Origin: Gammaproteobacteria bacterium
GTDB lineage: Bacteria; Pseudomonadota; Gammaproteobacteria; CAJXQU01
Assembly: GCA_965223825.1 (NCBI GenBank)
Contig: OZ245018.1
Coordinates: 2,012,272 to 2,076,271 of the forward strand
DNA: 64,000 nt
Direction of reading: 5' to 3'
Shown: positions 42,292-62,681 of the stretch, piece after piece
Layout: every line of letters starts with the position of its first letter
Numbering within the stretch: the first letter of the stretch is position 1
The notes under the pieces: generated by a model
Told to the model about the DNA's origin: nothing
Databases searched by the model: none
Seen by the model: the letters and a program-made list of their open reading frames with translations, nothing else
Translations under genes and position numbers: made by a program

Positions 42292-42374
42292 TCTTAATTC
42301 TTTTAAATAATTTTTCTTAAAAATTTAAACAACACTATTATTAAATTTTAGTTGAACTGATCAAGTCGACAGAT

Positions 42375-42413
42375 AAAAAAATGCGGGTTAAAGATATAAA
42401 ATCAATAACCCGC
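42375..42413 (-). terminator. Rho-independent terminator (minus strand) between the 4-oxalocrotonate decarboxylase and hydrolase genes.
   Basis: On the minus strand it reads GCGGGTTA ttgattttatatctt TAACCCGC followed by ATTTTTTT. Confidence 0.55.
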
Positions 42414-42595
42414 CAATACTGGGACGTCAAATGGCTAGAGAGTTAAAGGAAGTCACAATCATCCTGATTGTCGTGCTGTCATCCTTGCGAAGATTAAATG
42501 AACTCTAGAATCACTTAATCCACATTCGTTACATTACATCCTTCACTTTTCTCAACTCTGCCCAGTCTACTGTTAACGACTTACTTCACTTCAAA

Positions 42596-44439: not shown

Positions 44440-44449
44440 GCTTAAGCCC

Positions 44450-45355
44450 TCAATGATTCGCCGCTTTTTCCGCTTGATCTGCAAGCATCTGCTCTGCGAA
44501 CATTTCCGCCGTCCGCGCACCGGCTGCCGTCATAATGTCGAGATTGCCAGCATGTTTGGATAAGTAATCACCACGGCCTTCAACCTCAAGAAAAATACTG
44601 ACGCGATTACCATCAAAAACGGGACCATTTTTAATGCGATATCCCGGTACATACTTTTGAACTTCTTTTTCCATTTCCAACACGGATTTAGTGATCGCGG
44701 CCTCGTTTGGTTTATCTTTCGTCAAACAATGTACTGTGTCTCGCATCATGATCGGTGGTTCAGCAGGATTTAAAATGATGATCGCTTTACCCTCATCCGC
44801 CACACCAATTTTTGCAACCGCATTTGATGTGGTTTGAGTAAACTCATCAATATTTTTTCGCGTTCCAGGACCCGCTGATGCGGATGCTGCTGTGGCAATA
44901 ATTTCAGCGTATTTTAAATCTTGAATTCGACTAACTGCGCGAACCATAGGAATTGTTGCTTGCCCGCCGCAAGTGACCATATTGACATTCATTTCCCCTT
45001 TACCAATATGTTCAGCCATATTCACTGGTGGTACGCAAAAGGGACCAATCGCTGCTGGGGTCAGGTCTATCATTACCACGCCATGCTCTTGTACTTTGCG
45101 ACTATTTTCCGCATGGACATAAGCAGATGTCGCATCAAATGCAATGCGTACATTGTCTCCTGCCATATTTGCGATCAAACCATCTACACCTTCGTGAGTA
45201 CATTTCATGCCTTCTTTCGCAGCACGCGCCAAGCCGTCAGATTTTGGATCTATTCCAACCATCCAAACCGGCTCGAGCACCTCGCTACGTTTTAGCTTGT
45301 ACATAAGATCGGTGCCGATATTGCCCGATCCAATAATTGCACATGCGATTTTCAT
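44450..45355 (-). CDS. dmpF: Acetaldehyde dehydrogenase (acetylating).
   Basis: The N-terminus [20 protein letters not shown] matches MhpF/DmpF. The catalytic Cys region [10 protein letters not shown] is present. Confidence 0.9.
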
Positions 45356-45433
45356 TTTTCTATCCTCTTACCAACCTGGTCATTAATTTAGTCGTTTGGT
45401 TGGTCATTTTTTTAATTTGATCATTATTTTTAT

Positions 45434-46225
45434 TTATTCAAAACACAGCGAAGCGTTTCCCATCCCACCAACATGCACGGTCATATGATCACCCGGTTTA
45501 ATCGGAATGAGTGGGACAAGTGATCCAGATAAAATCACGTCACCAGCTTGCAGTGGAATCTCAAACTTGCCGAGTGTATTGGCTAACCATGCAACGCAAG
45601 TTAACGGTGAACCTAACGCCGCTGCTCCAGCACCGGTTGCAACGATCTCCCCATTTTTTTCTAACACCATACCGACCGTGGTTAAATCTAATTTCCGTGG
45701 GCTGATCGCTTGATGTCCGAGTGCAAAGTATCCGCACGAAGCATTGTCCGCGATGGTGTCTTGAATTTTGATTTTCCAGTCTCGGACACGTGAATCGACA
45801 ATTTCAAAACATGGCACAACAAAGTCCGTTGCGCGCAAGACGTCCGCAGCCGTCACACCGGGACCGGTTAAATCTTTTTTTAATACAAATGCGATTTCAC
45901 CTTCCGCACGTGGTTGAATCATCTTTTCACTGATCGGAATCGTTTGACCCGTTTCATAAACCATCTGATCGGTTAAATAACCAAAGTCCGGTTGATGCAC
46001 ACCCAGCATGTTTTGGACGGCTTTACTGGTCACACCGATTTTTTTACCGATGACTTTTTCGCCGGACTCTAATCGGTTATCAAGCAAGCGGGTGGAAATC
46101 GCATAAGCATCTTCAATGCTCATTTCAGGTTCACGATCAGTAATCGGTTCGATCACCTCACATGAACGTAATGCGGCAAAAAGATCATCACCGTATTGTT
46201 TAATTTTTTTCTTTTCCATGCTCAT
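45434..46225 (-). CDS. dmpE: 2-oxopent-4-enoate (2-hydroxypentadienoate) hydratase.
   Basis: The motif IGKKIGVTSKAVQNMLGVHQPDFGYL matches the MhpD/DmpE/XylJ hydratase branch. Its ATG at 46225 overlaps the HMS dehydrogenase stop (ATGA). Confidence 0.75.
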   Translation of the reverse strand: MSMEKKKIKQYGDDLFAALRSCEVIEPITDREPEMSIEDAYAISTRLLDNRLESGEKVIGKKIGVTSKAVQNMLGVHQPDFGYLTDQMVYETGQTIPISEKMIQPRAEGEIAFVLKKDLTGPGVTAADVLRATDFVVPCFEIVDSRVRDWKIKIQDTIADNASCGYFALGHQAISPRKLDLTTVGMVLEKNGEIVATGAGAAALGSPLTCVAWLANTLGKFEIPLQAGDVILSGSLVPLIPIKPGDHMTVHVGGMGNASLCFE

Positions 46226-47682
46226 AGTTTCACGCAAATATTTTTAAGCTCGGTATAAAACTCGAGTGAATGAACACCGCCTTCACGACCAATACCGGAA
46301 CGTTTCATGCCACCAAATGGAGTACGTAAATCACGTAAGAACCAACTATTTACCCACACAATGCCGGCTTCAATTTTACTCGCGACACGATGCGCTCTTG
46401 ATGAGTTTTCTGTCCAGATCGCAGCACATAATCCGTACTCTGTATCATTCGCCAGTGCGATCACTTCCTCTTCAGAATCAAATGGGCGGATATGGCAGCA
46501 AGGGCCAAAGATTTCTTCTTGAACCACCGCAGCATCGTCCGGTAAATCTGTCCAGATTGTTGGTTCGATCCACGCGCCATTTTGCATTTCACCTGGCATG
46601 TCGGGTATACCACCACCGATTACGACGGTTGCGCCCTCTTCCACAGCTTTTTTGTAATACGAAACGACTTTATCGCGATGCCCTTTACTAATCAGTGGGC
46701 CAAGGTTTGTTTCCGCATCTTTCGGATCACCGAGTTTAAGTTTTGTTACCTCGTCTTTTAATCGACGAACAAATTCTTCATAAATTGGACGTTCAACGTA
46801 AACTCGCTCTGTGCCAAGGCAGACTTGTCCGCAGTTAACAAATGTTGATCGCATCGTGCCTTCAATCGCTTTATCCATGTCGCAATCAGCGAAAATAATG
46901 CCTGGGTTTTTCCCCCCCATTTCCATGGAGACAGGTCGTGACCCTGTCGCTGCCGCACGCATGATAATTTCTCCGGTGACTGTTTCACCGGTAAACGTGA
47001 TCGCATCGACATCTCGATGTTCTGTCAGGAATGCACCAGCAGAATCACCACCAAAACCATTCACGACGTTATAGACACCTTTCGGTACGCCTGCCTCATT
47101 CATAACTTCACCTAACAAGGTCGTTGTGAGTGGTGTTTCTTCCGAGGGTTTGACAATGACGGTATTACCACACGCGAGTGCTGGCCCGACTTTCCACGTC
47201 ATCAACAACAGTGGCAAGTTCCACGGTGAGATCACGGCTATAACACCTTGAGGGACGCGGGTCGCATAATTGATCGCGCCGGTGCCATCTGGTGTCGCCA
47301 TTTCAAACGCTTCTGTGGGTACATTTTTTATCGTGTCAGCAAACACTTTAAAATTTGCTGCGCCCCGTGGGATATCGATGTGACGGGCGAGTGAATAAGG
47401 TTTACCAGTATCAAGGCACTCGGCTTCGAGAAAATCGTCAAAACGCGCATCAATTCCGTCCGCAATTTTGTACAAAATCGCTACGCGATCTTGCAAAGTC
47501 ATTTCTCCCCAAGGGCCATTTAAGGCTGCTTTTGCTGCTGCGACGGCAGCATCGACCTCGGCGCGCCCACCTTCATGCACGCGCGCAATGACACTACCGT
47601 CTACAGGTGAAATATCATCAAACATTTTTCCATTTGACGAACCGACGAATTCCCCACCAATAAAATGTTTTATTTCTTTCAT
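46222..47682 (-). CDS. dmpC: 2-hydroxymuconic semialdehyde dehydrogenase (NAD+ aldehyde dehydrogenase).
   Basis: It is 486 aa. ALDH motifs include EMGGKNP (as SMEMGGKNPGII) and a catalytic Cys in FVNCGQVC. Confidence 0.9.
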   Translation of the reverse strand: MKEIKHFIGGEFVGSSNGKMFDDISPVDGSVIARVHEGGRAEVDAAVAAAKAALNGPWGEMTLQDRVAILYKIADGIDARFDDFLEAECLDTGKPYSLARHIDIPRGAANFKVFADTIKNVPTEAFEMATPDGTGAINYATRVPQGVIAVISPWNLPLLLMTWKVGPALACGNTVIVKPSEETPLTTTLLGEVMNEAGVPKGVYNVVNGFGGDSAGAFLTEHRDVDAITFTGETVTGEIIMRAAATGSRPVSMEMGGKNPGIIFADCDMDKAIEGTMRSTFVNCGQVCLGTERVYVERPIYEEFVRRLKDEVTKLKLGDPKDAETNLGPLISKGHRDKVVSYYKKAVEEGATVVIGGGIPDMPGEMQNGAWIEPTIWTDLPDDAAVVQEEIFGPCCHIRPFDSEEEVIALANDTEYGLCAAIWTENSSRAHRVASKIEAGIVWVNSWFLRDLRTPFGGMKRSGIGREGGVHSLEFYTELKNICVKL

Positions 47683-47710
47683 AGGATGTTTATTCTCTAT
47701 TTATTGTTTT

Positions 47711-48130
47711 TTATGTAATTGCGTCTAAACCGGCTTGAGCGCATAACTCGTCTTGCTCTTCCGATGCACCTGAAACACCTATGGCGCCAACACAATCATC
47801 TCCTAACCTGATCGGAACACCTCCACCGAAGGCGACAAACCGATCACGCTGCACAATGCCTTCACGTAGTAACGATCCTTGTGGTAACACCTCACGCCAC
47901 TGACTTGTTGGAATGCTAAAACTGGCCGAGGTATAGGCTTTATCGATCGCGATATTGATGGACATGTACGGTGCATTTTCACTGCGTAAAAACGCCACCA
48001 ACTGCCCACTGCTATCCACAACAGCAACGGCTATGTGCACCCCTAATTCAGAGGCCTTCGCGATTGCTGCCTTGACAGAAACCTGTGCTGACTGCCAATG
48101 AATCAATTGTTTTTTATGTGTAATAACCAT
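47711..48130 (-). CDS. GlcG/HbpS-like (DUF336) protein, first gene of the lower-pathway operon.
   Basis: It is 139 aa. The region AVVDSSGQLVAF...GGGVPIRLGDDCVGAIGVSGASEEQDELCA fits DUF336. Confidence 0.6.
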   Translation of the reverse strand: MVITHKKQLIHWQSAQVSVKAAIAKASELGVHIAVAVVDSSGQLVAFLRSENAPYMSINIAIDKAYTSASFSIPTSQWREVLPQGSLLREGIVQRDRFVAFGGGVPIRLGDDCVGAIGVSGASEEQDELCAQAGLDAIT

Positions 48131-48210
48131 TTATTTAAAAAGAAATATCAGTTGTTCCGCATTTTCTATAAAATGTGTTTTACCTACTATTAACTACACA
48201 ACTAAATAAT

Positions 48211-48240
48211 ATCGATATTTTATATTTTGTCGATATTTTA
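48211..48240. promoter_or_regulatory. Copy A of the shared operator-like motif ATATCGATATTTTATATTTTGTCGATATTTTAT, in the divergent promoter between the lower-pathway operon and the GntR gene.
   Basis: It matches copies B and C at nearly every position. Confidence 0.5.
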
Positions 48241-48316
48241 TGCAAGGTATGAATTACTGTATTTCTGTCTATAATTCACACCTAATTACAAAAATAAAAA
48301 GGCTTAAATAACGTCA

Positions 48317-49000
48317 ATGACCGAACCTAAATCTAAAACGCTCTTTGAATCTGTTTTTAACCGAATTCGTGCCGATATTATTGATGGCAAACTTGATCCG
48401 GATTCCAAACTTCGCATTGAAGAATTACGCGAAAAATATGAAACAAGTGCCAGTCCTTTGCGTGAAGCATTAAACCGATTGGCTGGCCAAGGTTTTGTGA
48501 TCGTGACCGGTCAACGCGGCTTTCGTGTCTCGCCTGTTTCCATGGCCGACATAGAGGACATCACGCGCATGCGTATCATGCTGGAATGTGAAGCCTTAAA
48601 AGAAAGCATCGAAAAAGGCGATGATGAATGGGAAGCCAATATTATTGCCTCTTATCATCGGCTCACCAAAGCACATGAAATTAGAGAAGCGAATTTTCAA
48701 GAATGGGAGATCCGTAATAACGATTTCCACGAAACATTGATCGCCGCCTGCTCTTCTACTTGGCTACTCAATTTCAGACATGTTCTCTACGAACAACATA
48801 AACGCTACCGACTCATTTCTATTTTGGAACATGATTACAGTCGAGATATTCGTGCAGAACATGAAGCCATTAAAGAAGCGACTATCGAACGCGATGTTGA
48901 TCGTGCACTTGAAGAAACACGTAAACACATTCAACGCACGCTAGATTCAACAAAACTCAAAATCTCACAGCATGATGAAGAGTTAAAGAACCGAGCCTGA
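48317..49000 (+). CDS. GntR-family regulator (FadR/FCD subfamily), divergent from the meta-pathway operon.
   Basis: It has an N-terminal wHTH (ELREKYETSASPLREALNRLAGQGFV) and an FCD-like helical C-terminal domain. Confidence 0.8.
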   Translation: MTEPKSKTLFESVFNRIRADIIDGKLDPDSKLRIEELREKYETSASPLREALNRLAGQGFVIVTGQRGFRVSPVSMADIEDITRMRIMLECEALKESIEKGDDEWEANIIASYHRLTKAHEIREANFQEWEIRNNDFHETLIAACSSTWLLNFRHVLYEQHKRYRLISILEHDYSRDIRAEHEAIKEATIERDVDRALEETRKHIQRTLDSTKLKISQHDEELKNRA

Positions 49001-49058: not shown

Positions 49059-51419
49059 TTAGTTACTATTCGTTCCAGACTTCGCTTCGAGAATAAAGCT
49101 CGGACGAAAAGTTCGGATCCATGCTGGAATAATAAACATCGCAGCGATCGCATTAAGAATTAACATCACGATCAACAATAATGCCGCATCTGCTTGAAAG
49201 CGCATTGTCGAAATAAAGACCCACATCACCACGCCACAAATCAATGTCATGGCAGTAAAGCCGATGGCGATTCCCGTAGTATTCATCGCTTCTTTAATTG
49301 CTTCATTCAAATCACCGATGCGAATAAATTCCATCCGAATGCGATCCATAATGTAGATTGAATAATCGATACCAACACCGATACCAACAGCAATGATCGG
49401 CACAGTGTTTACATTGATACCAATTCCAGAAATACCCATATAGCCATACGTTAATGTGGTCGCAAATGACATGGCGAGTAACATCAACCAACCCGCATGG
49501 AAGGACCAATAAAATAAAGTAACGAAAACCAGAATTAATAAGAAAACGAGAGGAATAACAATAATATTCGTTTCATACGCGGCTTCATTAATCGCCGCCG
49601 TTACCCCGATCACACCTCCCGCCAGTTTAAGCGTGAAACCCTCAACCTGAGCGGCAGCAGAATGGGACCATTCTTTAACCATGTGAATCGCTCGACGAAT
49701 CGTTTCACCTTTATGATCTTTATAATAAAAAACCATATTGGCATTTTGTTCATCCGTATCAATAAACTCGAGCAACGCACCCGGTACTGGACTGGACATC
49801 ATATAGGTGAACATTAAACCGCCCGTTTCGAGATTATCCACGGGGTAACTTAACCACCTTGGATCGTTATTGTGGATTGTTGTACGTACTTGTTTTACCA
49901 AGTTTGGTAAACCTTTCGCCCCCCCTAGTTCCGGATCCATCAACATATAATTTTGAAAATCCGTCAGTGCACGGATCACATCTGGGTTTTTAAGACCGGC
50001 TTTTTCCTCAGTATGCGCAATAATGTAGAGTTCTTCTGAGCCCGGAAATAATTCATTCGTTGCTTTGGAAGAAATGTTGTAATCGTGATCTGGATAGAGC
50101 AACGGTGAACCCGGTTCTGACTCACCAATCTGTACCCAAGAACTAAAATACACACCAACGCACATCATCACCAACACACCGAATAACGTCGATTTTGCAC
50201 GATTCCTTGTCGCCGTTAATCCGGAAAGATCCGGCAATAGTTTCTGTAAAAAGTTTTGCTTTTGTTCGAAGTTTTTTGGTACAGGTAATAACTCAAGAAG
50301 GACGGGAACAAGAATTAATACCGTAAAGATCACACTACCTGCCCACAATGATGCGTAAATGGCCAGTTTGTCATTGATCGGCACAGAGCCGAGTGAAATC
50401 AACAATAAACCAATCGCATCGGAAATAACCCCAAGAGAACCAGGGCGAAACAAATCTTCAAATGTTTTACGAGCAGCTTTTTGTTTATCTTTAACTCGTG
50501 CAAGTTCATGGTAAAAACGTTCAACGAGTTGAATACCATGCGACATTGCTCGTGCAGAAATTAAAAATGGTACAACCATCATTAATGGATCGAGGTTGTA
50601 ACCGAGTAAGGAAAGAATCCCCAAACCCCATAAAGTCGTTAATAAAATACCAATACTCGGGAGTAACACACCATAGAGTTTTCGAAAATATAATGTCAGC
50701 AAAGCCAACATGATCAAAACGGTGTATAAAAAGATTTGTAGTATTTCGTTAACGTAGCTAGAAACCCAACCGACTAGTACGGGCTGACCGGTAGCGTAGA
50801 TTTCTATGCCTTCAGCCGCCTCAGAATCACGAATATCTTTTAATTCATTGAAAACTTGTTTGTAGTTTAATTCGCCCTCATTCAAAGTTCCGCGAATAAG
50901 TGCTGCACTAAGGTCCGGCGAAACTAATAAACCATAAACGCGCGGATTTGCGATCACATCATTTTGAATACCAGTGAGTTCTTCCTCTGAATAGCTGTCT
51001 TGTAATGGATCGTAATACGGCGTGGATTCAACCGTGCCCATTTCATTCAACCAGATTTTCCGTGTTGTTCTATGCGTTAAACTGGTCACCAAATTATGGT
51101 TTATGCCTGTTAATTCATCCACTTTTTGCGTTATGCGATGAATACGGGCCAGTGTCTCTTCATTAAAAATAGTGCCTTCATTCACTTTGAGTGAGACGAT
51201 AACATTATTTGCACCACCGAATGTGTCACGAATAATGTTATGTGTTTTGATGTATGAATGTTCTTGTGGGAGCAGATCTGCATAGTCTGACACCATTCGA
51301 ACGCCCGGCACTTGTATCGCAAAAATTGCTGTGATCAATAAAATAATTGACGCGGTAATTTTCGGGTGAGCGAACACGATTTTATCGATTTGTTTTAGTT
51401 TTTTTATTAGGTTAATCAT
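49059..51419 (-). CDS. RND-superfamily transporter of the MMPL/HpnN-like type (two 6-TM bundles).
   Basis: It is 786 aa with 12 predicted TM segments in a 1+5 / 1+5 arrangement and large periplasmic loops. It is the last gene of the DUF1302 module. Confidence 0.75.
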   Translation of the reverse strand: MINLIKKLKQIDKIVFAHPKITASIILLITAIFAIQVPGVRMVSDYADLLPQEHSYIKTHNIIRDTFGGANNVIVSLKVNEGTIFNEETLARIHRITQKVDELTGINHNLVTSLTHRTTRKIWLNEMGTVESTPYYDPLQDSYSEEELTGIQNDVIANPRVYGLLVSPDLSAALIRGTLNEGELNYKQVFNELKDIRDSEAAEGIEIYATGQPVLVGWVSSYVNEILQIFLYTVLIMLALLTLYFRKLYGVLLPSIGILLTTLWGLGILSLLGYNLDPLMMVVPFLISARAMSHGIQLVERFYHELARVKDKQKAARKTFEDLFRPGSLGVISDAIGLLLISLGSVPINDKLAIYASLWAGSVIFTVLILVPVLLELLPVPKNFEQKQNFLQKLLPDLSGLTATRNRAKSTLFGVLVMMCVGVYFSSWVQIGESEPGSPLLYPDHDYNISSKATNELFPGSEELYIIAHTEEKAGLKNPDVIRALTDFQNYMLMDPELGGAKGLPNLVKQVRTTIHNNDPRWLSYPVDNLETGGLMFTYMMSSPVPGALLEFIDTDEQNANMVFYYKDHKGETIRRAIHMVKEWSHSAAAQVEGFTLKLAGGVIGVTAAINEAAYETNIIVIPLVFLLILVFVTLFYWSFHAGWLMLLAMSFATTLTYGYMGISGIGINVNTVPIIAVGIGVGIDYSIYIMDRIRMEFIRIGDLNEAIKEAMNTTGIAIGFTAMTLICGVVMWVFISTMRFQADAALLLIVMLILNAIAAMFIIPAWIRTFRPSFILEAKSGTNSN

Positions 51420-51436
51420 TTTTATATAAACCGTGT

Positions 51437-52384
51437 TTAATTTGATTCATTCAAATTGATCAAGCTCAACATACCCGCTCCTCCAACCAAGAATTTTTCT
51501 TGATTGACAGCCTCGGTCAGCTTGAAGAAAAAACGTGACTGAACGGGTAATTCCATTGGCGTCCATTCATCTGCATTGCCAATTTTTTTCTGTATAACTG
51601 TTCCATAGTCACCAACAGCGATGATGTAATCTCCCATCATCGTCATACCGAATAATGGTGCAGTAGTATTCGTTGTTTCTTTATTCCAGCTTTGTCCGCC
51701 ATCGTGTGTTTCATAGATAATGCCGCTTAATCCCGCAATCCAACCGACTGAACTATCTCGAAACGTACTGGTTAGGGGGGAGAAATCATTTGGTACAGGA
51801 TCAGCAAAATTCCACGTTTGGCCACGATCATTTGTGATCAGCACCGTACCGAATTCACCGGTAATAAATCCATTATCCTGATCAACAAATTCCACGGTGC
51901 TCAAAATGACATCTTCACCCAATGAACTGTCTTTCCAACTTTTTCCAACATCATCACTTGATAAGATGGTGCTGAAACTACCGACTACCCATAGTGTGTT
52001 GTGTTGATCACAATCAATTGCTTGCGGAACTTCTGGTGTCCCTAAAGGATGATTTACCCATTCAGATAAATTCTCTTTCGCTGTCCAAACGTCACCTTCC
52101 ATAGATAAAGCTGCAAACGTGCCATTTGGACAAAGCGTAATTTCGATTAAAGAAGGTTTGGCTGATATTTGATGACGCTGCCATTTATCAGTACCTTTTG
52201 CAGCATGTAAAATAATGCCTTCTGATCCAACAGCAACCGTTGTCGTATCAGAATCGATCGCGGACATGAAAATATCCGTTCGACGAACTGATTGTTTTTC
52301 AGTGACGTCAAGCCCATCCAATGTGAGTGGCGCTTCGCATCCCATCAGTATTAACGGTGCGAATAAAATAAATAAATTACGCAT
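51437..52384 (-). CDS. BNR/Asp-box repeat beta-propeller lipoprotein (Ycf48-like).
   Basis: It has a lipobox (LILMGC). Asp-box motifs SxDxGxSW (DVGKSWKD), GQTWN and GGQSWN are present. Confidence 0.7.
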   Translation of the reverse strand: MRNLFILFAPLILMGCEAPLTLDGLDVTEKQSVRRTDIFMSAIDSDTTTVAVGSEGIILHAAKGTDKWQRHQISAKPSLIEITLCPNGTFAALSMEGDVWTAKENLSEWVNHPLGTPEVPQAIDCDQHNTLWVVGSFSTILSSDDVGKSWKDSSLGEDVILSTVEFVDQDNGFITGEFGTVLITNDRGQTWNFADPVPNDFSPLTSTFRDSSVGWIAGLSGIIYETHDGGQSWNKETTNTTAPLFGMTMMGDYIIAVGDYGTVIQKKIGNADEWTPMELPVQSRFFFKLTEAVNQEKFLVGGAGMLSLINLNESN

Positions 52385-52513
52385 GTTTATTAACCGTTCA
52401 TCAACACCCTGTCGAAAAGCAACAGTTTAAAAAATACCTGTCGAGCAGTTATTGAATTATTTTAATTATGAAATAAAAAAGTGCCCTCATTATTGAGGGC
52501 ACTTGCTCGCAAA

Positions 52514-53818
52514 CTAACGACCACTACTGCGCATGTTTTGCACAGAAAATTTACTTTGTGGATTCAACTTAGGATCAACCTGTCCTTTAAATTGTCCCGT
52601 TGTGCAGTGACCTGCTTGTACGTCAACCATACTGAAGCTGTCATCAACAGAAACACCGGTGCCTTTATTAACTGGCAAGTGATGATCTGGATGTGCTTGG
52701 CCGATATACCATGATTTCCAGTATTTTCCTGCGCGGTCATAAATGATCGTACGTGGGAAAGTGAACGTCTGTGCATCGACATAATGAACACGTTTGCCAA
52801 TGGGGTGGTTACCATCAACCGGGACAGATTCAAGAACATACGCTTTACGTAATTGCCATGTCACATTTGCGAAACAGCCACCTTGTCCACCAAAATCAAC
52901 AAACTTGTATTCTGGATCGTTAAACTCATCTGTCAGAGGCATGTCGTTGTGATTATAAAAAGGCAGCAACACTGTTTTTGTCCCTTTATATGTCCACTTC
53001 ATATCTGAAATCCGACCGTTATAACCTTCAAAATCTTCGATCATTAAATCAGCACCAAGAAATGAATCCGTCGTTTGACCAGAAGCAAGACGACGAACAC
53101 GACGCTGGAAACCAAGATACAACCAGGCATCATCACGTTTTAAATCGTCTTCATAACGATGAATTAAAAGCTGGGTGTTTTTTACGTCGAACGGTTCTTC
53201 AACCATCGCGTAAATTGATCGGAAAATTTCAGATGGGTTTGGAGAAACTTCAGGTAATGGTTCGTAGTTAACGCGATGCTTCCAATTAAGAAAGTGGAAG
53301 TTGATTTTAATTTCACGCTCTACTTTACCGCTTTGCAGATCACGATAGCGCCAATAGAAAGGATAGATTGCAGCAGTATCCCCCCAGTTATAACCATATT
53401 TAAAATTCCATGCGAGTTTTTCACCTGCACGAGGATCACTCATATCCGGCTCTTCCGGAAAAGGACGCCCGGCTAGGAAACCAGAAATTTCACCTGGCTG
53501 GCTACCCAATGTGGTTTTATTTAAGTTTTCTTTTGTAGCATTTATGTAACCATCATGAAGGATGTAGTCCGTGGTTTCACCAACTTTAATTTCTAACCAA
53601 CCATCCTTTACGTGCTTATACATTTCAGGATCGAGTACATCTTTTGCAGCATCAACATTACCGGCATTGATGACCATTCCTGGTGTAACGCCATCTACTG
53701 TAGGAAATCCATTTTTATAAGGATAAAACGAATTTTCTATATCTTCTGGCGATGCAGCCTGTACTGTAGCGATCGGCAAAAAAGCTGCCAGCATGATCGC
53801 GATTCTCTTTAATTTCAT
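52514..53818 (-). CDS. DUF1329-family periplasmic protein (LolA-like fold family).
   Basis: It has a signal peptide (MKLKRIAIMLAAFLPIATVQA) and is 434 aa. A GAGGAG RBS is present. It is adjacent to the DUF1302-like gene. Confidence 0.7.
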   Translation of the reverse strand: MKLKRIAIMLAAFLPIATVQAASPEDIENSFYPYKNGFPTVDGVTPGMVINAGNVDAAKDVLDPEMYKHVKDGWLEIKVGETTDYILHDGYINATKENLNKTTLGSQPGEISGFLAGRPFPEEPDMSDPRAGEKLAWNFKYGYNWGDTAAIYPFYWRYRDLQSGKVEREIKINFHFLNWKHRVNYEPLPEVSPNPSEIFRSIYAMVEEPFDVKNTQLLIHRYEDDLKRDDAWLYLGFQRRVRRLASGQTTDSFLGADLMIEDFEGYNGRISDMKWTYKGTKTVLLPFYNHNDMPLTDEFNDPEYKFVDFGGQGGCFANVTWQLRKAYVLESVPVDGNHPIGKRVHYVDAQTFTFPRTIIYDRAGKYWKSWYIGQAHPDHHLPVNKGTGVSVDDSFSMVDVQAGHCTTGQFKGQVDPKLNPQSKFSVQNMRSSGR

Positions 53819-53945
53819 GGGTCTCTCCTCTTGCTTATTTATTGCTGTTTTCTAATTTCAGCAATTTTCAGAATCCTGTCAGGACATCTTTTATTATGAT
53901 CTGCAAGAGCTAACTAAATAGGGTCAGCTCTTGCAGGGGGTTACT

Positions 53946-55942
53946 TTAAAAACGATAACGAACTAACAGTTGAACTTGATCTTCATTTTGCGCCATACCA
54001 ATTGGGCCAGAGCGGAATCGGCCTAATGGTTCAAAACCACTTAAACCAAGACTTTGGCTTGGTGCGCCTGTTCCAGTAAATGGAGGAAAAGGATCAGCAC
54101 TTCTTGCATCATCAAATGGTCGCGCACCTGTACCGAACTTAAAGTTCGCACCTAACGTGACACGCCAGTTGTCATTCACAAGCCAATCGATAGACGGTGC
54201 AACTGCTGCGGCTTGTGCACGAACATCGTACGCGGTGATGATTTGCGGGCTAAGTCGATCGTTCATGTACCAACCTTTTACCAATAACGTCGTGATAAAG
54301 TTATCTTTCCAGTCGGGATACCAATCTTACCTAACGGTCCGTCTTCCAGATCGTGCTCAAGAATATGTTGACCAAATACTTGTGCAGAAAATAAGAAAGC
54401 ACGCGTTTTGTTTAAGAAAGGAATGAAAGTTGGTCGATCTGCGCCGACAACCCAACGGATAACATCAGACTCTGAATACATTTCCGGTTTTGAGGTATTC
54501 GCAAACTCTTCACCAGTTGTCCATGCAGCTTCAACCCGAAAAGCTGTTTTCAAGCTATCCACATAAAAGTCCGCTGAACCACCGAGTAAACCGACACGTG
54601 GAAAATGAATGTCGAATGCGATCAGATAATCACGATTTAATTCAACACCGCCGGTACCGACTCCCGGAACGGTTACACCGGGTGCAATAAAAGGATTCAC
54701 TGCAGCCACATTACCCGCTCTCAGCGATGGAAGTTGTGAGCGGTAGTACAATCCGTTAAGTGAGAAACCCACGCCTTTATAAACACCCTCTAAGCGCATA
54801 CCGACTTCGGTTTCATCCAATTCCCAATCAGGCATCACTGCTTCACGAATACCGATACTGTGAGCTGGGAAATCCGTTTGTGCACCGCCACCGGCAAAGT
54901 TAGAAACAGAACAGCCATTTTCCCAACAATTATTCAGCGCGCGGAATAAGGAACCTGCATCGAGAATGGAGTTTGGTGTACCACCCTGGCCAAGGTTACT
55001 AGGACGAAATTTTTCGAACTTCCACAAGAACTGTAAGTTCAGATCATCAAATGTTTCTGTCGCACCCCAACGGTATTCCGCGGTTGCGATCCCCATTGGA
55101 ATACGAATATCTTCCAATTCGTCATAGATATTATTTCGTGAATAATCCACTGGGTTGATAACATCTAAAACACGGAATAAATCCGTACGGCCCCACACGA
55201 CCTGTTGGCGACCAAAGGTTAAATCTAATTGACGGCCGTTGGCTAATGGGATGGTGCCCGAGACATACGCTTCACGAATGACATCCGCTCGGCTATTAAA
55301 CTCCGGGTTTTGTAGATCGCTTTCTTCATAATCCAAATAGCCATCAATACAACCACGCGGATCAATATTGCACGGCCTCACTGGAACGCCGATTAACACA
55401 CCACCGTCATCTCCGTGTAATTGTGAGCCCAATTGAACCAAGCCTTCATTTGGATTCTAAGTGACATCAAAACCGAAGCCACCGCCTCCCGGTAAGCCTG
55501 GATTACCGGCAGTCACCAATGAGTTACCCCAAGGTGTGGTAATACCCGCAGGCACAGCCGATGGACCTAATACTCCGGCTGGAACACCGGCAGACGTATA
55601 TTCAACAGAGCCACCCGCATTTCTACCGTATTCATCATCGTTCAGATCATAAACCGCATCGTAGCTCGCACGAAGTGTGCCGTTGAATTGAAAGTTTTTG
55701 AAAATACCCACATCACCTAATGTTTTTGAAATTTCCAGGTTTAGGGTGTTGCGCATTTTAGATAACCCTTCTCCGTGTAAACGGACATGGGTGTCAGTCT
55801 CGAAATAACCGTGGATCTCCGCTTCTTCCGCATTCACTCCAGCACTTGCCGCTGTGAGTATTCCTGCAACCAGAAGCGATGTGGGCGTCATATTACTGGA
55901 AATATGAGCGTTCCCCTCCTGCATTCGCTTACGAACAGACAT
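53946..55942 (-). pseudogene. DUF1302-family outer-membrane protein gene, apparently disrupted. It is split into three ORFs by an in-frame TAG (55457-55459) and a +1 frameshift near 54280-54330.
   Basis: ORF 55457..55942 carries the signal peptide. ORF 54278..55441 is in the same frame as the first, with only a TAG and five sense codons (NPNEGL) between them. ORF 53946..54284 is in a different frame and ends ...LLVRYRF, a typical beta-barrel C-terminus. The three fragments total about 660 aa, which fits DUF1302. Confidence 0.55.
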
Positions 55943-56072
55943 GCTTAGCCTCCTCTTTTTTATTGTTTAAACAACTCGTTTTACAGAGTTGTCCTGCACC
56001 GCTTATTTATGTATTTTTAGAAATACTTATTTATATCTATTTTTATTTTTAAATCTTACGCAGACTAATTAT

Positions 56073-56102
56073 ATCGATATTTTTATTAATGTCGATATTT
56101 TT
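56073..56102. promoter_or_regulatory. Copy B of the shared motif, ATATCGATATTTTTATTAATGTCGATATTTTT, about 130 bp upstream of the DUF1302 gene.
   Basis: I read it directly; it aligns with copies A and C. Confidence 0.5.
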
Positions 56103-56203
56103 TTATTTTTGCGTTGAACTTAATTATTTTTGATTTATTTCAATAGGTTGGATATAGGATCAGAGAATGGCTTTATATAAAACCATTCTCTGATCAACCA
56201 AGA

Positions 56204-57253
56204 TCAAGCGCGATGTTCTTGTTCTATCATCTGTTTCAAGCGTCGACGAACCCGTACATTGCCGACATCGCTGGATAACAAAACAGGATTCAGTGAAAAG
56301 AGATCGGTGATCTCAATCTCTTCTTGTTGCAGATCAATCACGGGTTTATCTTCATCAGCAAACGCGGCTTGCAAGCCTTCCTTATGCATAGCGTTATATT
56401 CCGCATCATGCTGCCTGTAGTTACGTGCTGATCCAAAAAAGTAGTGCGTTGTTTTCGCCGTTTCTGGTGTCATTAAATGGAAGTCATACAGTACAACCCC
56501 GTCGTTTTCATAATCCTGACTGCCTTGCACCGCTCCGACCTGTAAATGCATATTCGACGGTGCGCGCCATTTAACAGTCAGGTATTGATCAGCCGTACCT
56601 TCAGGTTCTTTTAAATGATTCCCCAACAGTGGCATTGCCGGATCCGCTTCCCACAACCAATTGATGTAGATGTCATCCCCATCATCTTTCACATCAGGAA
56701 TGATCGGGCTCAGCTTACCTTTGGTGTTGATCAGTGGACCGTGTAAGTGATCAATATGCGAAAGATCCATAATGTTATCGGTGATCAACTCGTAGTTCGC
56801 GTTGTTGTGCAGCACGAAATAAAACACTGCATCCTTCGGACTATTAGTCAAAATACTGCAATCCAGAATTTTATCTTCATCGGCCAGATCAGCATCGCCC
56901 ATCCAGATCCACAAAAAACCATCACGCTCAACTAATGGGAAGGATTGCACCACAGCTGCTTTAGGGATTTTGCCGTCACCATGCGGACTGTGTACGCACT
57001 TGCCAGTGCAATCAAACGTTAGGCCGTGATACTTACACGTAATGTCATCGCCATGACGTTGCCCAGCGGATAAAGGTAAAAACCGGTGTGGACAACGATC
57101 ACGTAAGGCAACCACCTCACCATTTTCTTTACGATAAATCAGAACGGATTGATCGAGAATTTTTCGTCTAAATAAATCCATTCCATTAATTTCTGTCACC
57201 AGTGCAGCCACATACCAGGCATTACTCAAAAAAATATTTTTATCTTCACTCAT
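56204..57253 (-). CDS. Rieske non-heme iron oxygenase, VanA/TsaM-type alpha subunit (O-demethylase/monooxygenase-like).
   Basis: The Rieske motif is CPHRFLPLS...CKYHG. A mononuclear iron region HNNANYELITDNIMDLSHIDHLH is present. It is 350 aa. The first ATG (MSEDK) has a GAGGAG RBS. Confidence 0.85.
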   Translation of the reverse strand: MSEDKNIFLSNAWYVAALVTEINGMDLFRRKILDQSVLIYRKENGEVVALRDRCPHRFLPLSAGQRHGDDITCKYHGLTFDCTGKCVHSPHGDGKIPKAAVVQSFPLVERDGFLWIWMGDADLADEDKILDCSILTNSPKDAVFYFVLHNNANYELITDNIMDLSHIDHLHGPLINTKGKLSPIIPDVKDDGDDIYINWLWEADPAMPLLGNHLKEPEGTADQYLTVKWRAPSNMHLQVGAVQGSQDYENDGVVLYDFHLMTPETAKTTHYFFGSARNYRQHDAEYNAMHKEGLQAAFADEDKPVIDLQQEEIEITDLFSLNPVLLSSDVGNVRVRRRLKQMIEQEHRA

Positions 57254-57558
57254 GCTGGTTCTCCTCACACGATTTATTTCAAGCCTCGACCTCTTTTGGG
57301 TCGATGAATAGGGAAAATAGTTTTAGAAAAATCCATCCGTCGCGTTAACAAAGCTCGACAAACACCGACGGGTAATTTTCCTGTATGAGGACTATACGAG
57401 GGCGCACTATGACGTTCACCAACCTTTAGGATGGTCGTCTTAATTGGTTGAAATACTGTGATATTTTAGAAATTCATCGTAAAGCATGAATGAAACGGAT
57501 GGCGATCAGGCAGCGTTCAAAACAAACACCGATCAGGCTGCTGTATAAATGGGTGGGA

Positions 57559-60375
57559 TTATTGCAAAAACCCAAGTTCACGCGCTTTAGAAACGGCACT
57601 GCCGCGACGGTGGACATCGAGCTTGGTAAAAATTTGTTGCCAGTACCACTTAACCGTATTTGGTGAAAGTGACAATCGCGTTGCTATTTCAGAATTAGAA
57701 CGATCATCCGCCGCCATCTCTAAAATTTCCACTTCGCGCTCTTTTAATAAAGCTTCCTGCAAACTAAAATCCATTGTTTGCGATCGTGGAAAATGTTGCA
57801 TTGGATCATTAGAAAAAGCAGTCAGCAACCGGGTGATCAGATCTGCAGAATCTGAAGCGTTTTCTGATTGCAGCTCACGCAAAAGCTTTTGTATCGGCTG
57901 TCCTTCATCAAGAAAAAAACGAACTGAATGTTCTGCACCTTTTAAATGCAAACACGTTTGCAGCACACCACGTGCTGCGGAGTGATCACCATTTTCCGCT
58001 GTGATCGCCGTCAAACAGAGTCCTGTTTGTAAAGCCGGTTCCCAACAACCGCGATCAGATAAAAACTGCCACCATTGTTTAAGCAAACGAATAGCCACCG
58101 CCGATTGTCCGCGCAACGTCGCTAATCTCGACCACGCAATCGCCATAACGCAGGTCGCTGTCGAGGCATTTTCATCGGGTTTGAGATTGATTGGCGGCCC
58201 CATTAAGCCACTCTGTCGGCCACATTCTGCAGCTTGTTGCGCATCACCCAATAAGCAATGAAGTCGGACCCGTTCCGCGATCAGATGTGTTTCTAAACGC
58301 GAAAAAGCAAAACGTGCTGCCTGTTTTATTCCTTCGTTTAAACATTCGAATGCAACATCCAAATTGCCATCAAAGACATGCACACGCGTCTTCGTTAAAT
58401 AGCCTGCAATCAACTGATCAGACAGCCCAAGTTTTTCACAGTGGCCTAAATGCTCGTTCACCAAATCACGCGCAAACTCAATTCGATTTTGCGTGTAGTA
58501 CAGATCTGCTAACAGCAAACCCGGTGTAGAAGAAATGGAGGAAAGTCGTCCATGCAATTCCGTGGCATCATTCAGCGCATTTTTAAATAATGCTTGCGCT
58601 TCGGTGTATTCCGCTTGCATTCGCAAAGTAATACCGACCAAGGCATCATGATAAACACTACCGTAAAGCACATTATGCTCAACACAAATTTCATGCATGG
58701 CTGCGGCCAAGCCCAGTGTCTCCCCCACTTCGAAATGATCGCGTCGTGCACTTTGTAATAAAATTTGTACAGAAGTCAGCATGTGCATCGCTGGATCAGA
58801 TGGGTAATTCGCAGACAGCCACGCTTCACACGCGATTTTAGTTTTCGCGAGATCGTCAGAAATCGCCGCTAACATCATTTCTCGGTGTTTCAATTTGCCT
58901 TCAAGATAGTGTAACTGCTTTGGTGCAAGACCTGACTCGACTAATAATATTTTTTTATCGGAAATAGTCGCGTGGAGCTCTCGATGTCTCGCCAGTTCTT
59001 CACTGATCAGATCGAGCATGGCGGCTCCCTTTTCGAAATCCCAGCGCATGATATGTTGCCACGCGAGATCTAACATTAAACGCGGCTGACGTTTCAAAAC
59101 ATCGTATGGAATACGGGCTGCTTGCTCTTCTAATGTGGTCACATGTCCGGTGGAAAACAACGTTTCACTGACATGATCTAAAAGCGCAGCAGCACGGGCT
59201 TTATCTTCAGCACAACAAGCATGATGGATCGCATCCAAATAAAAATGATGTTGTTCAAACCACAACGATGCGCGACTGTGAAAGACGCGGTATTTATCCG
59301 GATCGGCCTCACGCAAGCGCCTATCGAGAAACTCCGCAAACAGATGATGGTAGCGATACCAATCATCCGTCTCGTCTAAAGAAAAAATAAAAATATGGGA
59401 TGCAATCACCTGTTCAAGCAATGCATGACAATCTTTCATTTCCGTGACCGCCGCGCACAAACCGCGGTTTAACCGTGTCAGTATGGACGTTTGCAGTAAA
59501 AACTCGCGCACAGGTTCATCCAGCGTACGCAACACTTCTTCGGTTAAAAAATTTGCAATGTCACGATATTCACCGGAAAGATCGTGAATCCAATGTTGTG
59601 GGTTTTGTACTTTCTGCAAAGACAACGAGGCGAGTTGTAAACCTGCGACCCAACCTTCTGTACGATCAGCAAGTAACGCCAGATCAGGGTTTCGTAAAGG
59701 AATTTTAGTGGTCTTAGCAAAAAACTCGCGCGACTCGGCTAATGTAAAACGCAGATCATCGACATCCAGCTCATGCAAGCGTCCAAGGGCTCGCAATCGG
59801 CCTAACGACACGCCCAACGGCGCATGGCGCATGGCGACAATCCATTTCACACTGGCTGGACTACGCATGAACAATTCACTAACAGTGTCGAGTAGATCAG
59901 AATTCGTAATCAGATGAAAGTCATCAATAAAAATCCTCACCGGCTGATCTAGCTGGGCAATCTCATTAATAAATAAGGTCATCAACGTATCCGATGACGG
60001 ATTCGCACCACGCTCGATCAGGCCCAGAATATCGCGCCCGAAACCGGCAGAAGATTTGCGCACGGCTTCCACTAACGCATGCGCAAAGCGCACCATGTCG
60101 TTATCGGTTTTATCTAACGTAAACCAAGCGCAGATGCTTTGTTCTGATTGCGCTTGCGTAAATATTTGTGCGAGTAAGCTGGTTTTGCCATAACCGGCCG
60201 GCGCGGTAACCGTGAGAACAGAACAGCTTTCTGTCGCGCTAAACACACTTGCTAGACGTGGCCGTGCGATCAGCAGCCCGCGCTGCGACGGTGGCTTGAG
60301 TTTGGTCTCTAGTACAACAGATAAATAAGGCATCAGGTGCGTCGTGAAGTGTTTGTTTATTATTTTCTCAGACAC
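57559..60375 (-). CDS. MalT-type large LuxR-family regulator (STAND/AAA ATPase plus helical repeats plus C-terminal LuxR HTH).
   Basis: A Walker A motif (TAPAGYGKTSLL) is present. The C-terminal HTH reads REVEILEMAADDRSNSEIATRLSLSPNTVKWYWQQIFTKL. The track's start is GTG; an alternative ATG lies at 60333. Confidence 0.85.
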   Translation of the reverse strand: MSEKIINKHFTTHLMPYLSVVLETKLKPPSQRGLLIARPRLASVFSATESCSVLTVTAPAGYGKTSLLAQIFTQAQSEQSICAWFTLDKTDNDMVRFAHALVEAVRKSSAGFGRDILGLIERGANPSSDTLMTLFINEIAQLDQPVRIFIDDFHLITNSDLLDTVSELFMRSPASVKWIVAMRHAPLGVSLGRLRALGRLHELDVDDLRFTLAESREFFAKTTKIPLRNPDLALLADRTEGWVAGLQLASLSLQKVQNPQHWIHDLSGEYRDIANFLTEEVLRTLDEPVREFLLQTSILTRLNRGLCAAVTEMKDCHALLEQVIASHIFIFSLDETDDWYRYHHLFAEFLDRRLREADPDKYRVFHSRASLWFEQHHFYLDAIHHACCAEDKARAAALLDHVSETLFSTGHVTTLEEQAARIPYDVLKRQPRLMLDLAWQHIMRWDFEKGAAMLDLISEELARHRELHATISDKKILLVESGLAPKQLHYLEGKLKHREMMLAAISDDLAKTKIACEAWLSANYPSDPAMHMLTSVQILLQSARRDHFEVGETLGLAAAMHEICVEHNVLYGSVYHDALVGITLRMQAEYTEAQALFKNALNDATELHGRLSSISSTPGLLLADLYYTQNRIEFARDLVNEHLGHCEKLGLSDQLIAGYLTKTRVHVFDGNLDVAFECLNEGIKQAARFAFSRLETHLIAERVRLHCLLGDAQQAAECGRQSGLMGPPINLKPDENASTATCVMAIAWSRLATLRGQSAVAIRLLKQWWQFLSDRGCWEPALQTGLCLTAITAENGDHSAARGVLQTCLHLKGAEHSVRFFLDEGQPIQKLLRELQSENASDSADLITRLLTAFSNDPMQHFPRSQTMDFSLQEALLKEREVEILEMAADDRSNSEIATRLSLSPNTVKWYWQQIFTKLDVHRRGSAVSKARELGFLQ

Positions 60376-60464
60376 AAAGAACGCTCCCGCTGTTATCGAC
60401 TCATTTCATTGATTGCAATGCCACTACGACACGGAGTTGCACTTATTCACCTTCGACCAGAAAA

Positions 60465-61427
60465 TTACAGATCTAACACCAACACTGGCGACTTCGAACG
60501 TGAGCAACACGGCGTGAACTGGTCATTTAACGCTTTCTCTGCATCCGTTAAATACATATCACGGTGATCCGGCGTACCTTCCAAAACGCGCGTGAGACAC
60601 GTACCGCAAATTCCTTGCTCACAAGAAAGCGGAATATCAACACCCTGTGCTTCCAGCGCTTCAATAATTGTTTTATCCGGCGGGATTATGTAAGTCGCTC
60701 CGGTACTGGCGACTTTGATGGTAAATGCTTGATCACCCTCTTCACTGAGATCAATCGCACCGAACGATTCCGTATGGATCACATCATCTGTCCAACCAAA
60801 CTGATCGCGCGCGGTTGAGGTGACAAAATTCATAAAACCATCGGGCCCACAAACGTACAGATGTGTATCTGCTTCCGTCGATGCAAAAAGTGTCCCCAAC
60901 GCCAACTTTTGATCAGCCGCACCATCATCAAAATGAAAATGAATAAACGGCTTCAAACTACCGTCGATAAGTTCATTGTGAAAAGCCGCATGCAAACGAC
61001 TACGACAACAGTAATGCAATTCGAACGATTGAGAGTGATCAAATAAATGTTGTGCCATCGCCAGCATCGGCGTGATCCCAATCCCTCCGGCGATAAGGAT
61101 AGAATGTGCCGCTTCGCGTAATGGAAAATTATTCCGTGGTGCACTTATGGTGATCTGATCACCCTCATTGATTTTCGCGTGAACGGCTTTGGATCCTCCG
61201 CGCCCCGCATCTTCTAACTTGATCGCGAGGCGGTAATGATTCCGTTCTGAAGGTGAAGAACAAATAGAATATTGACGAACAAACCCATCAATATGCAAAT
61301 CAATATGTGAACCGGCTTCGAAGCTGGGTAAAACCTGACCCTCACCAGGCGAAAGTTCAAGACAAAGAATATCTTCCGCAGCGAGAAACTTGCGAGAAAC
61401 AGTAACGGTTAAGGTGTGATCATTCAT
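60465..61427 (-). CDS. VanB/PDR-family oxidoreductase (FMN-binding FNR-like domain plus C-terminal plant-type 2Fe-2S).
   Basis: An FNR-like N-terminus (RQYSICSSP) is present. The C-terminal ferredoxin reads LSCEQGICGTCLTRVLEG. It is 320 aa. Confidence 0.85.
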   Translation of the reverse strand: MNDHTLTVTVSRKFLAAEDILCLELSPGEGQVLPSFEAGSHIDLHIDGFVRQYSICSSPSERNHYRLAIKLEDAGRGGSKAVHAKINEGDQITISAPRNNFPLREAAHSILIAGGIGITPMLAMAQHLFDHSQSFELHYCCRSRLHAAFHNELIDGSLKPFIHFHFDDGAADQKLALGTLFASTEADTHLYVCGPDGFMNFVTSTARDQFGWTDDVIHTESFGAIDLSEEGDQAFTIKVASTGATYIIPPDKTIIEALEAQGVDIPLSCEQGICGTCLTRVLEGTPDHRDMYLTDAEKALNDQFTPCCSRSKSPVLVLDL

Positions 61428-62508: not shown

Positions 62509-62681
62509 AAAGTACCTCCTCCATGCTTCGATTTATCGAATTATTATGGTTACCGATCCGAAAGCGACGATTGCCGACCTCACTCGGAATTTTTATATTT
62601 TTCTAATTTAAGCGAATGATTTTTCAATATTTTTAAGAAATACCAGTCACATTAAACGGTCATTGTTATTTTTCTGATTAT

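Follow-up and report, generated by a model that had tools for sequence, protein, structure and literature searches.

What does a four-gene envelope module do in the middle of an aromatic catabolic island? The question is raised by a 64,000-nt stretch of a gammaproteobacterial genome (contig OZ245018.1 of assembly GCA_965223825.1, positions 2,012,272 to 2,076,271; hereafter, the window), where genes for a DUF1302 outer-membrane beta-barrel, a DUF1329 periplasmic protein, a BNR beta-propeller and an RND transporter occupy positions 49059-55942 of the minus strand. The answer to which we lean, with somewhat better than even confidence, is that this quartet belongs to an AmeABCD-type system, induced together with the phenol/catechol pathway, that would provide proton-driven export of, and tolerance to, aromatics that partition into membranes. 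In the window strain itself the barrel gene is a pseudogene. On the minus strand, the interval reads as open reading frames (ORFs) of 786, 315 and 434 aa, then 112, 387 and 161 aa, corresponding to the following features:

49059-51419, minus strand: HAE3/MMPL-type RND inner-membrane transporter, 786 aa, intact (Pfam MMPL, 1.4e-22)
51437-52384, minus strand: Ycf48-like BNR beta-propeller, predicted lipoprotein, 315 aa, intact (Pfam PSII_BNR, 9.5e-21)
52514-53818, minus strand: DUF1329 periplasmic protein of the LolA superfamily, 434 aa, intact (Pfam DUF1329, 2e-72; LolA_like, 2e-17)
53946-55942, minus strand: DUF1302 outer-membrane beta-barrel pseudogene (Pfam and alignment to intact alleles)

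An earlier interpretation made from the DNA letters alone (the sequence-only reading) had described a same-strand quartet here. Its families, coordinates and strand are confirmed by Pfam, and both DUF assignments hold under profiling with hidden Markov models (3.1e-35 for the middle fragment of DUF1302; 2e-72 for DUF1329); a quartet of intact genes is not confirmed, since DUF1302 is a pseudogene.

The three remaining genes are full length and free of lesions, both in the window strain and in the sister strain L001 (L-numbers are labels of the related loci and contigs that we compared with the window). The RND protein has the same length as the allele of strains with an intact barrel. Its top NCBIfam match is HAE3 (TIGR00921; 3.6e-40), which at 137.7 bits lies under the curated cut-off of 351.9, and its matches among PDB sequences are weak, to SecDF and MmpL3. 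The hydropathy profile, with hydrophobic segments at residues ~20-43, 226-380, 408-429 and 619-764 and two periplasmic loops of ~180-190 aa, is compatible with a 1+5/1+5 plan of 12 transmembrane segments, one expected helix (~640-660) being under threshold. The BNR protein matches the Ycf48 entries 5ojp, 8am5 and 2xbg of the PDB at ~1e-13, and its N-terminus, MRNLFILFAPLILMGC (...LILMGC), reads as a lipoprotein lipobox. The DUF1329 protein has a cleavable signal peptide ending ...ATVQA/AS and shows ~70% identity to hundreds of proteins in three proteobacterial classes; an exact-sequence look-up of the window protein returned no record. We built an AlphaFold2 (AF2) model of it, of moderate quality (pLDDT 74, pTM 0.78) and with low confidence at residues 189-268. 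Foldseek ranked as best PDB matches 4z48 (DUF1329), LolA3 9tp6, 3bk5 and 3buu (probability 1.0, TM(target) 0.57-0.67), which confirms, at the level of the predicted model, a LolA-like open beta-barrel fold. The stretch that the model places with least confidence is also the most conserved one: WLYLGFQRRVRRL...MIEDFEGYNGRISD, largely invariant in 18 sequences, falls within residues 189-268 (53015-53254), the sole long low-confidence stretch of the model (pLDDT <50). These residues may fold only against a partner.

Is the barrel gene truly dead? Its region consists of three ORF fragments of 161, 387 and 112 aa, all of which match the intact ortholog (phmmer, 8.7e-75, 1.7e-247 and 1.7e-71, respectively); Pfam detects DUF1302 in the 387-aa middle fragment (3.1e-35) and in the 112-aa C-terminal fragment (0.0056), and has no match for the 161-aa fragment. 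The 161- and 387-aa pieces share a frame and have an in-frame TAG (55457-55459) between them, and the 112-aa piece lies in another frame. Comparison with the intact 665-aa alleles of L085, L087 and L088, whose DUF1329 proteins are 98-99% identical to that of the window, identifies two lesions: a nonsense substitution (C>T at 55459, converting CAG to TAG), which ends the reading frame at codon 162, and a deletion of 1 bp (CCC>CC, ~54318), which shifts the frame near codon 542. Alignment to L002, an 85% identical relative with a single 666-aa DUF1302 gene, sets the deletion at the same position. The sister strain L001, from an independent assembly, differs from the window by 63 substitutions and one 1-bp indel over 21.3 kb (64 differences, ~0.3%). 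It shares the CCC>CC deletion, reads CAG in place of TAG, and has a 1-bp deletion of its own at the equivalent of 55727; the TAG is specific to the window strain. One ancestral frameshift followed by two later, independent lesions is what a genuine, recent pseudogene would show, judging from these alleles. We rejected sequencing error as the main cause, on the basis of assemblies and not of reads, because the deletion is present in two independent assemblies and missing from three others, and the TAG is a substitution. Programmed frameshifting at 54318 is likewise unsupported, as the sequence has no slippery heptamer there.

Intact alleles end with ...LLVRYRF. The frameshift in the window removes the last ~123 residues, including this terminus, so no barrel can be made; tested for membership in PF06980, the window DUF1302 is a clear family match and not a full-length barrel with a C-terminal aromatic beta-signal. 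The proposed trans-envelope route is, from the sequence, broken at its outer-membrane step in this strain. A phmmer search found no paralogous DUF1302 in the 64-kb window, and a PDB sequence search with DUF1302 gave 0 matches. Extra copies do occur in relatives, namely a DUF1302/DUF1329 pair in L085 and a DUF1329 gene in L002.

These lesions raise the alternative that the quartet of the window strain is a decaying relic without current function, in which loss of the barrel came first and that of the three genes behind it, silenced by polarity, is to follow. Two disabling lesions in the window, and a third, independent one added in the sister strain to the shared frameshift, speak for it. Moreover, the stop at codon 162 would leave ~1.5 kb of untranslated mRNA before DUF1329, inviting Rho-dependent polarity, and the ratio of nonsynonymous to synonymous differences (pN/pS) of the repaired DUF1302 against L087 is 0.24, above the 0.04-0.09 of neighbouring genes. 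Nevertheless, DUF1329, BNR and RND are without lesions in both strains and their differences are mostly synonymous (pN/pS 0.04-0.11, on counts too small to prove continued selection), although a divergence of ~0.3% is too low to decide the matter. In addition, given the extra copies seen in relatives, a paralog at another place in the 3.3-Mb genome could stand in for the barrel. We regard the relic as possible, if doubtful. Whether the three intact genes are active here depends on the extent of polarity and on such paralogous barrels.

The same comparison gave a separate observation on L085 (7435-13305). Its DUF1302 and DUF1329 are near-identical to those of the window (pS ~0.05-0.065), and its BNR and RND genes are far more diverged (pS 0.25-0.40), which indicates a probable recombination breakpoint within the quartet, with its two halves exchanged. 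In place of the window's GntR gene, L085 has a second DUF1302-DUF1329 pair.

What, then, connects the quartet to catabolism? The sequence-only reading had pointed to a shared 32-bp motif in the quartet promoter. This motif is real and is part of something larger: it belongs to a repeat family, D3, with three copies (48203-48246, 56065-56108 and 62674-62717), each containing the exact ATATCGATAT and each forming a complete promoter-operator cassette. The cassettes and the neighbouring regulatory features are:

56068-56098, minus strand: quartet promoter-operator cassette; -35 TCGACA (56095-56090), 16-nt spacer, -10 TATAAT (56073-56068), 11/12 consensus in a promoter scan
48206-48236, minus strand: cassette before the lower meta-pathway operon; -35 TCGACA, 16-nt spacer, -10 TATTAT (48233-48206)
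62677-62707, minus strand: cassette before the catechol 2,3-dioxygenase (C23O) gene; -35 TCGACA, 16-nt spacer, -10 TATAAT, 11/12 consensus
48317-49000, plus strand: GntR/FCD regulator, candidate AphS/BphS-type repressor of the three cassettes (Pfam GntR, 5e-17; FCD, 3.2e-17)
53901-53936, minus strand: strong stem-loop between DUF1302 and DUF1329 (RNA fold -24.2 kcal/mol, z = -8.2 against shuffles; no U-tract)
56158-56195, minus strand: strong stem-loop right after the vanA-like stop codon, upstream of the quartet promoter (RNA fold -26.4 kcal/mol, z = -6.95; no U-tract)

All three cassettes have a near-consensus sigma-70 promoter (10-11/12) whose hexamers are overlapped by two boxes. In the quartet cassette the boxes (56089-56098 and 56071-56080) cover the -35 and the -10; those before C23O lie at 62680-62689 and 62698-62707, and those before the lower operon at 48209-48218 (exact) and 48227-48236 (two mismatches). 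The exact ATATCGATAT is found 3 times in the 64 kb, once per D3 promoter region, with the second, near-identical box 18 bp off. With up to one mismatch allowed, the window has 11 matches where 2.6 would be expected, a count that none of 100 shuffled sequences attained. Another ATATCGATAT-like site (47372-47381) lies ~300 bp inside the coding sequence of the 2-hydroxymuconic semialdehyde dehydrogenase and recurs in distant taxa (L001:16438, L032:652, L064:2506); it could reflect either coding constraint or an internal operator. As for the stem-loops, that at 53901-53936 might act as an attenuator or mRNA stabiliser, and that at 56158-56195 as a terminator. The 5' untranslated leader of the quartet folds no better than shuffled sequence (z = -1.0).

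The box has a known counterpart. By comparison with the published consensus, ATATCGATAT is the core of the palindromic operator of the GntR-family regulators AphS/BphS, AwATATCGATATwT, which occurs in multiple copies (PMC6449761). BphS acts as a repressor at operators overlapping the promoter, from which the meta-cleavage product HOPD releases it (PMC10282184). The GntR/FCD gene of the window adjoins the quartet and is divergent from the lower meta-pathway operon. Its top plasmid homolog (46.5% identity) is divergent from the meta-cleavage operon of pBN2, with a ATCTCGATAT box between the two; the placement of this homolog is BphS-like. Among relatives, the quartet cassette is kept upstream of DUF1302 in L002 and L007, and operator-like boxes stand upstream of the quartet or its operon in at least 30 loci. 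The window thus resembles the AphS/BphS regulons of Comamonas TA441 and Acidovorax KKS102 (PMC6449761, PMC10282184) in the palindrome core, in the multiple promoter-overlapping boxes and in the GntR gene beside meta operons. It differs in belonging to a gammaproteobacterium, in having no aphR or dmpR gene within the 64 kb, and in boxes fused with a near-consensus sigma-70 promoter into a cassette repeated three times; the orthology of the GntR protein and the nature of its effector are here inferred.

The genes around the quartet, as identified by Pfam, are:

41378-48130: lower meta-cleavage pathway operon
56204-57268: VanA-like Rieske oxygenase
57559-60375, minus strand: MalT-type STAND/LuxR regulator (TPR_MalT, GerE, AAA_22)
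60465-61427: reductase (VanB-like)
61588-62508: C23O
62739 to the window end: ferredoxin and DmpP-like (phenol-hydroxylase) reductase

The quartet therefore lies, as had been proposed, between the lower meta-cleavage operon and the Rieske oxygenase and phenol-hydroxylase genes. The VanB-like reductase, MalT/LuxR regulator and VanA-like oxygenase form a block (56204-61427) that separates C23O from the quartet and is found only in the closest relatives of the window; in L006 and L007, the operator and DUF1302 come straight after C23O. Going by these gene orders, the block appears to be an insertion, specific to this lineage, into a dmp cluster that is older. Its MalT-type regulator (NCBIfam MalT, 7.4e-96, below cut-off) is present in L001, L002, L085 and L087 and not in L005-L084. 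LuxR-type regulators are reported to adjoin DUF1302/DUF1329 pairs (10.1101/2020.07.04.188060; PMC13499233), and by this association the MalT-type protein is a possible second regulator of the quartet.

To see how general this arrangement is, we scanned for DUF1329 in one genome per species. Alignment confirmed 582 relatives, from which we kept the best 80 (65-77% identity), belonging to Gamma-, Alpha- and Betaproteobacteria, and labelled their ORFs by phmmer with the window proteins as queries. Counts refer to the 54 of these loci with at least 15 kb of sequence (long loci); the loci were picked by DUF1329 similarity only, and the counts describe this clade and not all DUF1302/DUF1329 systems. 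The full quartet is present in 52 of the 54. Two or more meta-cleavage genes lie within 10 kb in 42, and meta-cleavage or phenol-hydroxylase genes in 46. Several of the remaining 8 still have DmpR-like, DmpL-like or C23O genes, and the flanking ORFs of ten low-scoring loci include Phenol_Hydrox, XylR_N/Sigma54 and UbiD families in a Pfam summary. A GntR homolog sits beside the quartet or the meta operon in 17/54, often with boxes in its divergent intergenic region. The usual gene order is BNR-RND-DUF1302-DUF1329, and the closest relatives of the window have the ame-like order DUF1302-DUF1329-BNR-RND. In Halieaceae the quartet is inside the operon itself (C23O-DmpC-DmpH-BNR-RND-DUF1302-DUF1329-...-DmpEFG). 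A separately found conjugative plasmid of the IncP group, from Pseudomonas veronii of a site contaminated with aniline, carries dmpKLMNOP-Fd-C23O-...-dmpH; on the divergent side it has dmpR, then a YCF48-related gene and, at some distance, a DUF1329 of 65.5% identity. From these neighbourhoods, the quartet clade appears to travel with dmp-type phenol/catechol meta-cleavage clusters. The quartet is thus normally linked to catabolic genes in this clade (42-46 of the 54), although the earlier suggestion of co-occurrence with hydrocarbon catabolism holds for phenol/catechol meta-cleavage (46/54) and not for hydrocarbon catabolism in general.

A side observation from the same set concerns Candidatus Thiodiazotropha, sulfur-oxidising symbionts of lucinid clams (L019, L024, L027, L039, L051-L055, L061, L068). 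In these loci the quartet directly follows the dmp lower pathway, and AphS-type boxes lie between RND and DUF1302.

What could such a quartet do for a phenol degrader? Contrary to the sequence-only reading, to which it had no defined function, several related systems have been described: AmeABCD, the cofitness clusters and the predicted AphS/AphR/AphT regulons. The closest in composition is AmeABCD of Castellaniella defragrans 65Phen, a tetrapartite HAE3 RND system in a monoterpene island; its deletion makes the cells less tolerant of monoterpenes and lets more Nile Red accumulate (PMC6394551). Compared by family, order and size, the two quartets have the same four families (DUF1302, DUF1329, COG4447/Ycf48-like, HAE3 RND) in the same order and nearly the same sizes (605, 451, 316 and 787 aa for AmeA-D; 665 in the intact allele, 434, 315 and 786 aa here), and both are part of an island for the catabolism of a growth substrate that is toxic and hydrophobic. 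They differ in that AmeABCD comes from an anaerobic betaproteobacterium and a monoterpene island, whereas the window quartet belongs to a gammaproteobacterium of an uncultured type and a dmp-type phenol/catechol meta-cleavage cluster, is under AphS/BphS-type boxes and has a barrel pseudogene. Suvorova and Gelfand predicted the quartet (COG4447, COG1033, PF07044, DUF1302) in AphS/AphR/AphT regulons of several Betaproteobacteria, and suggested that it helps to cope with toxic aromatics (PMC6449761).

By analogy with these systems, we propose that the adjacent GntR/FCD protein would repress the quartet, C23O and lower-pathway units jointly and release them jointly once the pathway runs, since the same cassette stands before all three. 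The likely effector would be a ring-cleavage intermediate, by analogy with BphS. The RND pump, driven by protons, would take phenolic or other membrane-partitioning aromatics from the inner membrane or periplasm, and this cargo would reach the DUF1302 barrel, for release, by way of the propeller and the LolA-like protein. The whole would act as an overflow or tolerance valve, keeping a toxic growth substrate under damaging levels. In the window strain, the early translation stops may also reduce how strongly the three intact genes downstream are expressed. Pumps of the RND superfamily are exporters powered by the proton gradient, and we know of no importer among them; the presence of the pump therefore favours export over import. 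The coupling to catabolic genes at the level of the repressor argues against a housekeeping envelope role. The proposed role is that of the HAE1 solvent-efflux pumps TtgABC and SrpABC of Pseudomonas putida, which extrude membrane-partitioning aromatics by a proton-driven mechanism. Their architecture is different: an HAE1 trimer with a membrane-fusion protein and a TolC-like channel, as opposed to an HAE3 pump with a LolA-like protein, a beta-propeller and a DUF1302 barrel. Two envelope pairs needed for marine hydrocarbon use, AupA/AupB of Marinobacter and PahS/PahP of Cycloclasticus, were also considered and rejected as relatives. AupA/AupB were candidate DUF1302/DUF1329 proteins, and the paper shows AupA to be FadL-like; PahS/PahP are a TonB-dependent receptor and a binding protein.

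Several points weigh against the export reading. The support at the locus and in the clade is sequence-based. The homologs in P. putida (PP_0765/0766 and PP_2018/2019, with a LuxR-type regulator nearby) are needed for growth on Tween 20 and butyl stearate (Thompson et al., 10.1101/2020.07.04.188060), and Delftia and Castellaniella mutants grow poorly on their own hydrophobic substrates; these phenotypes would fit uptake or envelope remodelling equally well. The LolA-like carrier and the characterised HAE3/MMPL relatives (HpnN, MmpL3) suggest, by analogy, movement of lipids and not of small aromatics. DUF1302/DUF1329 pairs are often found without BNR and RND genes, so the two halves may have separable roles. 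The GntR protein is only a candidate AphS/BphS ortholog, its best NCBIfam match being CsiR-like and under cut-off. Finally, the barrel gene is dead and the quartet may be inactive in the window strain.

The mutant phenotypes also bear on the alternative of an inward route, in which aromatics of low solubility would cross the outer membrane and periplasm by way of the DUF1302 barrel and the DUF1329 carrier to reach the catabolic enzymes, with the BNR and RND proteins as accessory or recycling components. Under this uptake hypothesis, homolog mutants would grow poorly on hydrophobic substrates for want of import, as do ameB::Tn5 on monoterpenes, the Delftia DUF1329 mutant on phenanthrene and those in PP_0765/0766 on Tween 20 and butyl stearate. 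The Foldy authors proposed a system for substrate transport, on AlphaFold contacts which suggest that DUF1302 and DUF1329 form one complex and DUF1329, BNR and RND another. A Zoogloea phenol-hydroxylase cluster holds the DUF1302/DUF1329 pair alone, and no FadL/TodX family member matched among the ORFs profiled at 41-64 kb, which were those of at least 80-120 aa. However, the exporter nature of RND pumps runs counter to uptake, and phenol and cresols are soluble and membrane-permeant, so an import machine is less needed. The AmeABCD mutant, moreover, is normal on oxygenated monoterpenoids, is rescued by acetate and accumulates more dye, which points to tolerance rather than uptake (PMC6394551). 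We consider uptake distinctly improbable.

An unlikely possibility, though one we rate above import, is that the quartet acts on the envelope itself: the RND pump would export a lipidic component via the LolA-like carrier to the barrel, altering the outer membrane or its vesiculation (nanopods) in the presence of hydrophobic toxic substrates. Price et al. reported cofitness of the four genes in several bacteria, with pleiotropic phenotypes, and proposed that the system exports a cell-wall component (bioRxiv 10.1101/072470). DUF1302 and DUF1329 proteins are present in Delftia nanopods and outer-membrane vesicles, the window DUF1329 has a LolA superfamily fold (Foldseek on the AF2 model), and characterised HAE3/MMPL relatives move hopanoids or trehalose monomycolate. 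On the other hand, the quartet is accompanied by no lipid biosynthesis genes in this clade. The neighbours conserved with it are genes of phenol/catechol catabolism with common repressor boxes, which tie it to the substrate, and loss of the barrel in two wild strains suggests that it is not needed for envelope integrity. The cofitness clusters Sama_1588-1591 of Shewanella amazonensis and PP_0765/0766 with PP_2018/2019 of P. putida are made of the same Pfam/COG quartet (10.1101/072470; 10.1101/2020.07.04.188060; PMC10866462), and a LuxR/MalT-type regulator is nearby both in P. putida and in the window. Those copies have pleiotropic or fatty-ester phenotypes without linkage to an aromatic pathway, and Pseudomonas has the quartet divided between two loci. 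Copies in Shewanella, Kangiella and Pseudomonas indeed lie in other gene contexts, whereas the clade of the window, ~65-77% identical across classes, is nearly always beside meta-cleavage or phenol-hydroxylase genes.

A 2026 study modelled DUF1302 as an 18-strand barrel. A bolder idea, to which we give very little credence, is a dedicated, pathway-gated machine for handing off aromatics, in which the LolA-like carrier would ferry phenolics, and not lipids, between the 18-strand barrel and the HAE3 RND/propeller. Instead of a plain efflux valve, such a machine would import its cargo or work bidirectionally, and would control how much substrate the periplasm offers to the phenol hydroxylase pathway. 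If this were true, the repeated barrel loss in sister strains would mark the pore as a liability in certain settings, e.g., through toxic influx or as a phage receptor.

With export still the reading we prefer, the locus extends published ideas and is not a new kind of system. The quartet is widespread and has strong mutant phenotypes. What the present comparison supplies is a physiological setting (dmp-type phenol/catechol clusters in three proteobacterial classes and on a conjugative plasmid), a regulatory handle (the AphS/BphS-box promoter cassette common to the catabolic operons) and natural isogenic material in the form of strains with an intact or a broken barrel gene. With these three resources, efflux, uptake and envelope remodelling become hypotheses that can be put to a direct test. 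The quartet is also relevant to the engineering of phenol and solvent tolerance.

Three minor features of the window complete the picture. Ribulose-monophosphate genes lie on the minus strand at 33193-34374 and 32213-32932, coding for a hexulose-6-phosphate synthase-like protein of the OMPdecase family and a SIS/PHI protein, with a second GntR/FCD regulator and a transaldolase adjoining; a formaldehyde-handling unit of this kind at 32213-34374 would fit the VanA-like enzyme (56204-57268) being an O-demethylase. A 21-nt inverted repeat, 95% complementary (48861-48881 / 49286-49306), has its arms within the coding regions of GntR and RND, which are convergent; each arm codes for the peptide EAIKEA, and the repeat is probably due to chance. 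PpsA (38079-40466) has homologs of more than 70% identity only in metagenome-assembled genomes, and its homologs in Plasticicumulans and Stutzerimonas are only 67-68% identical.

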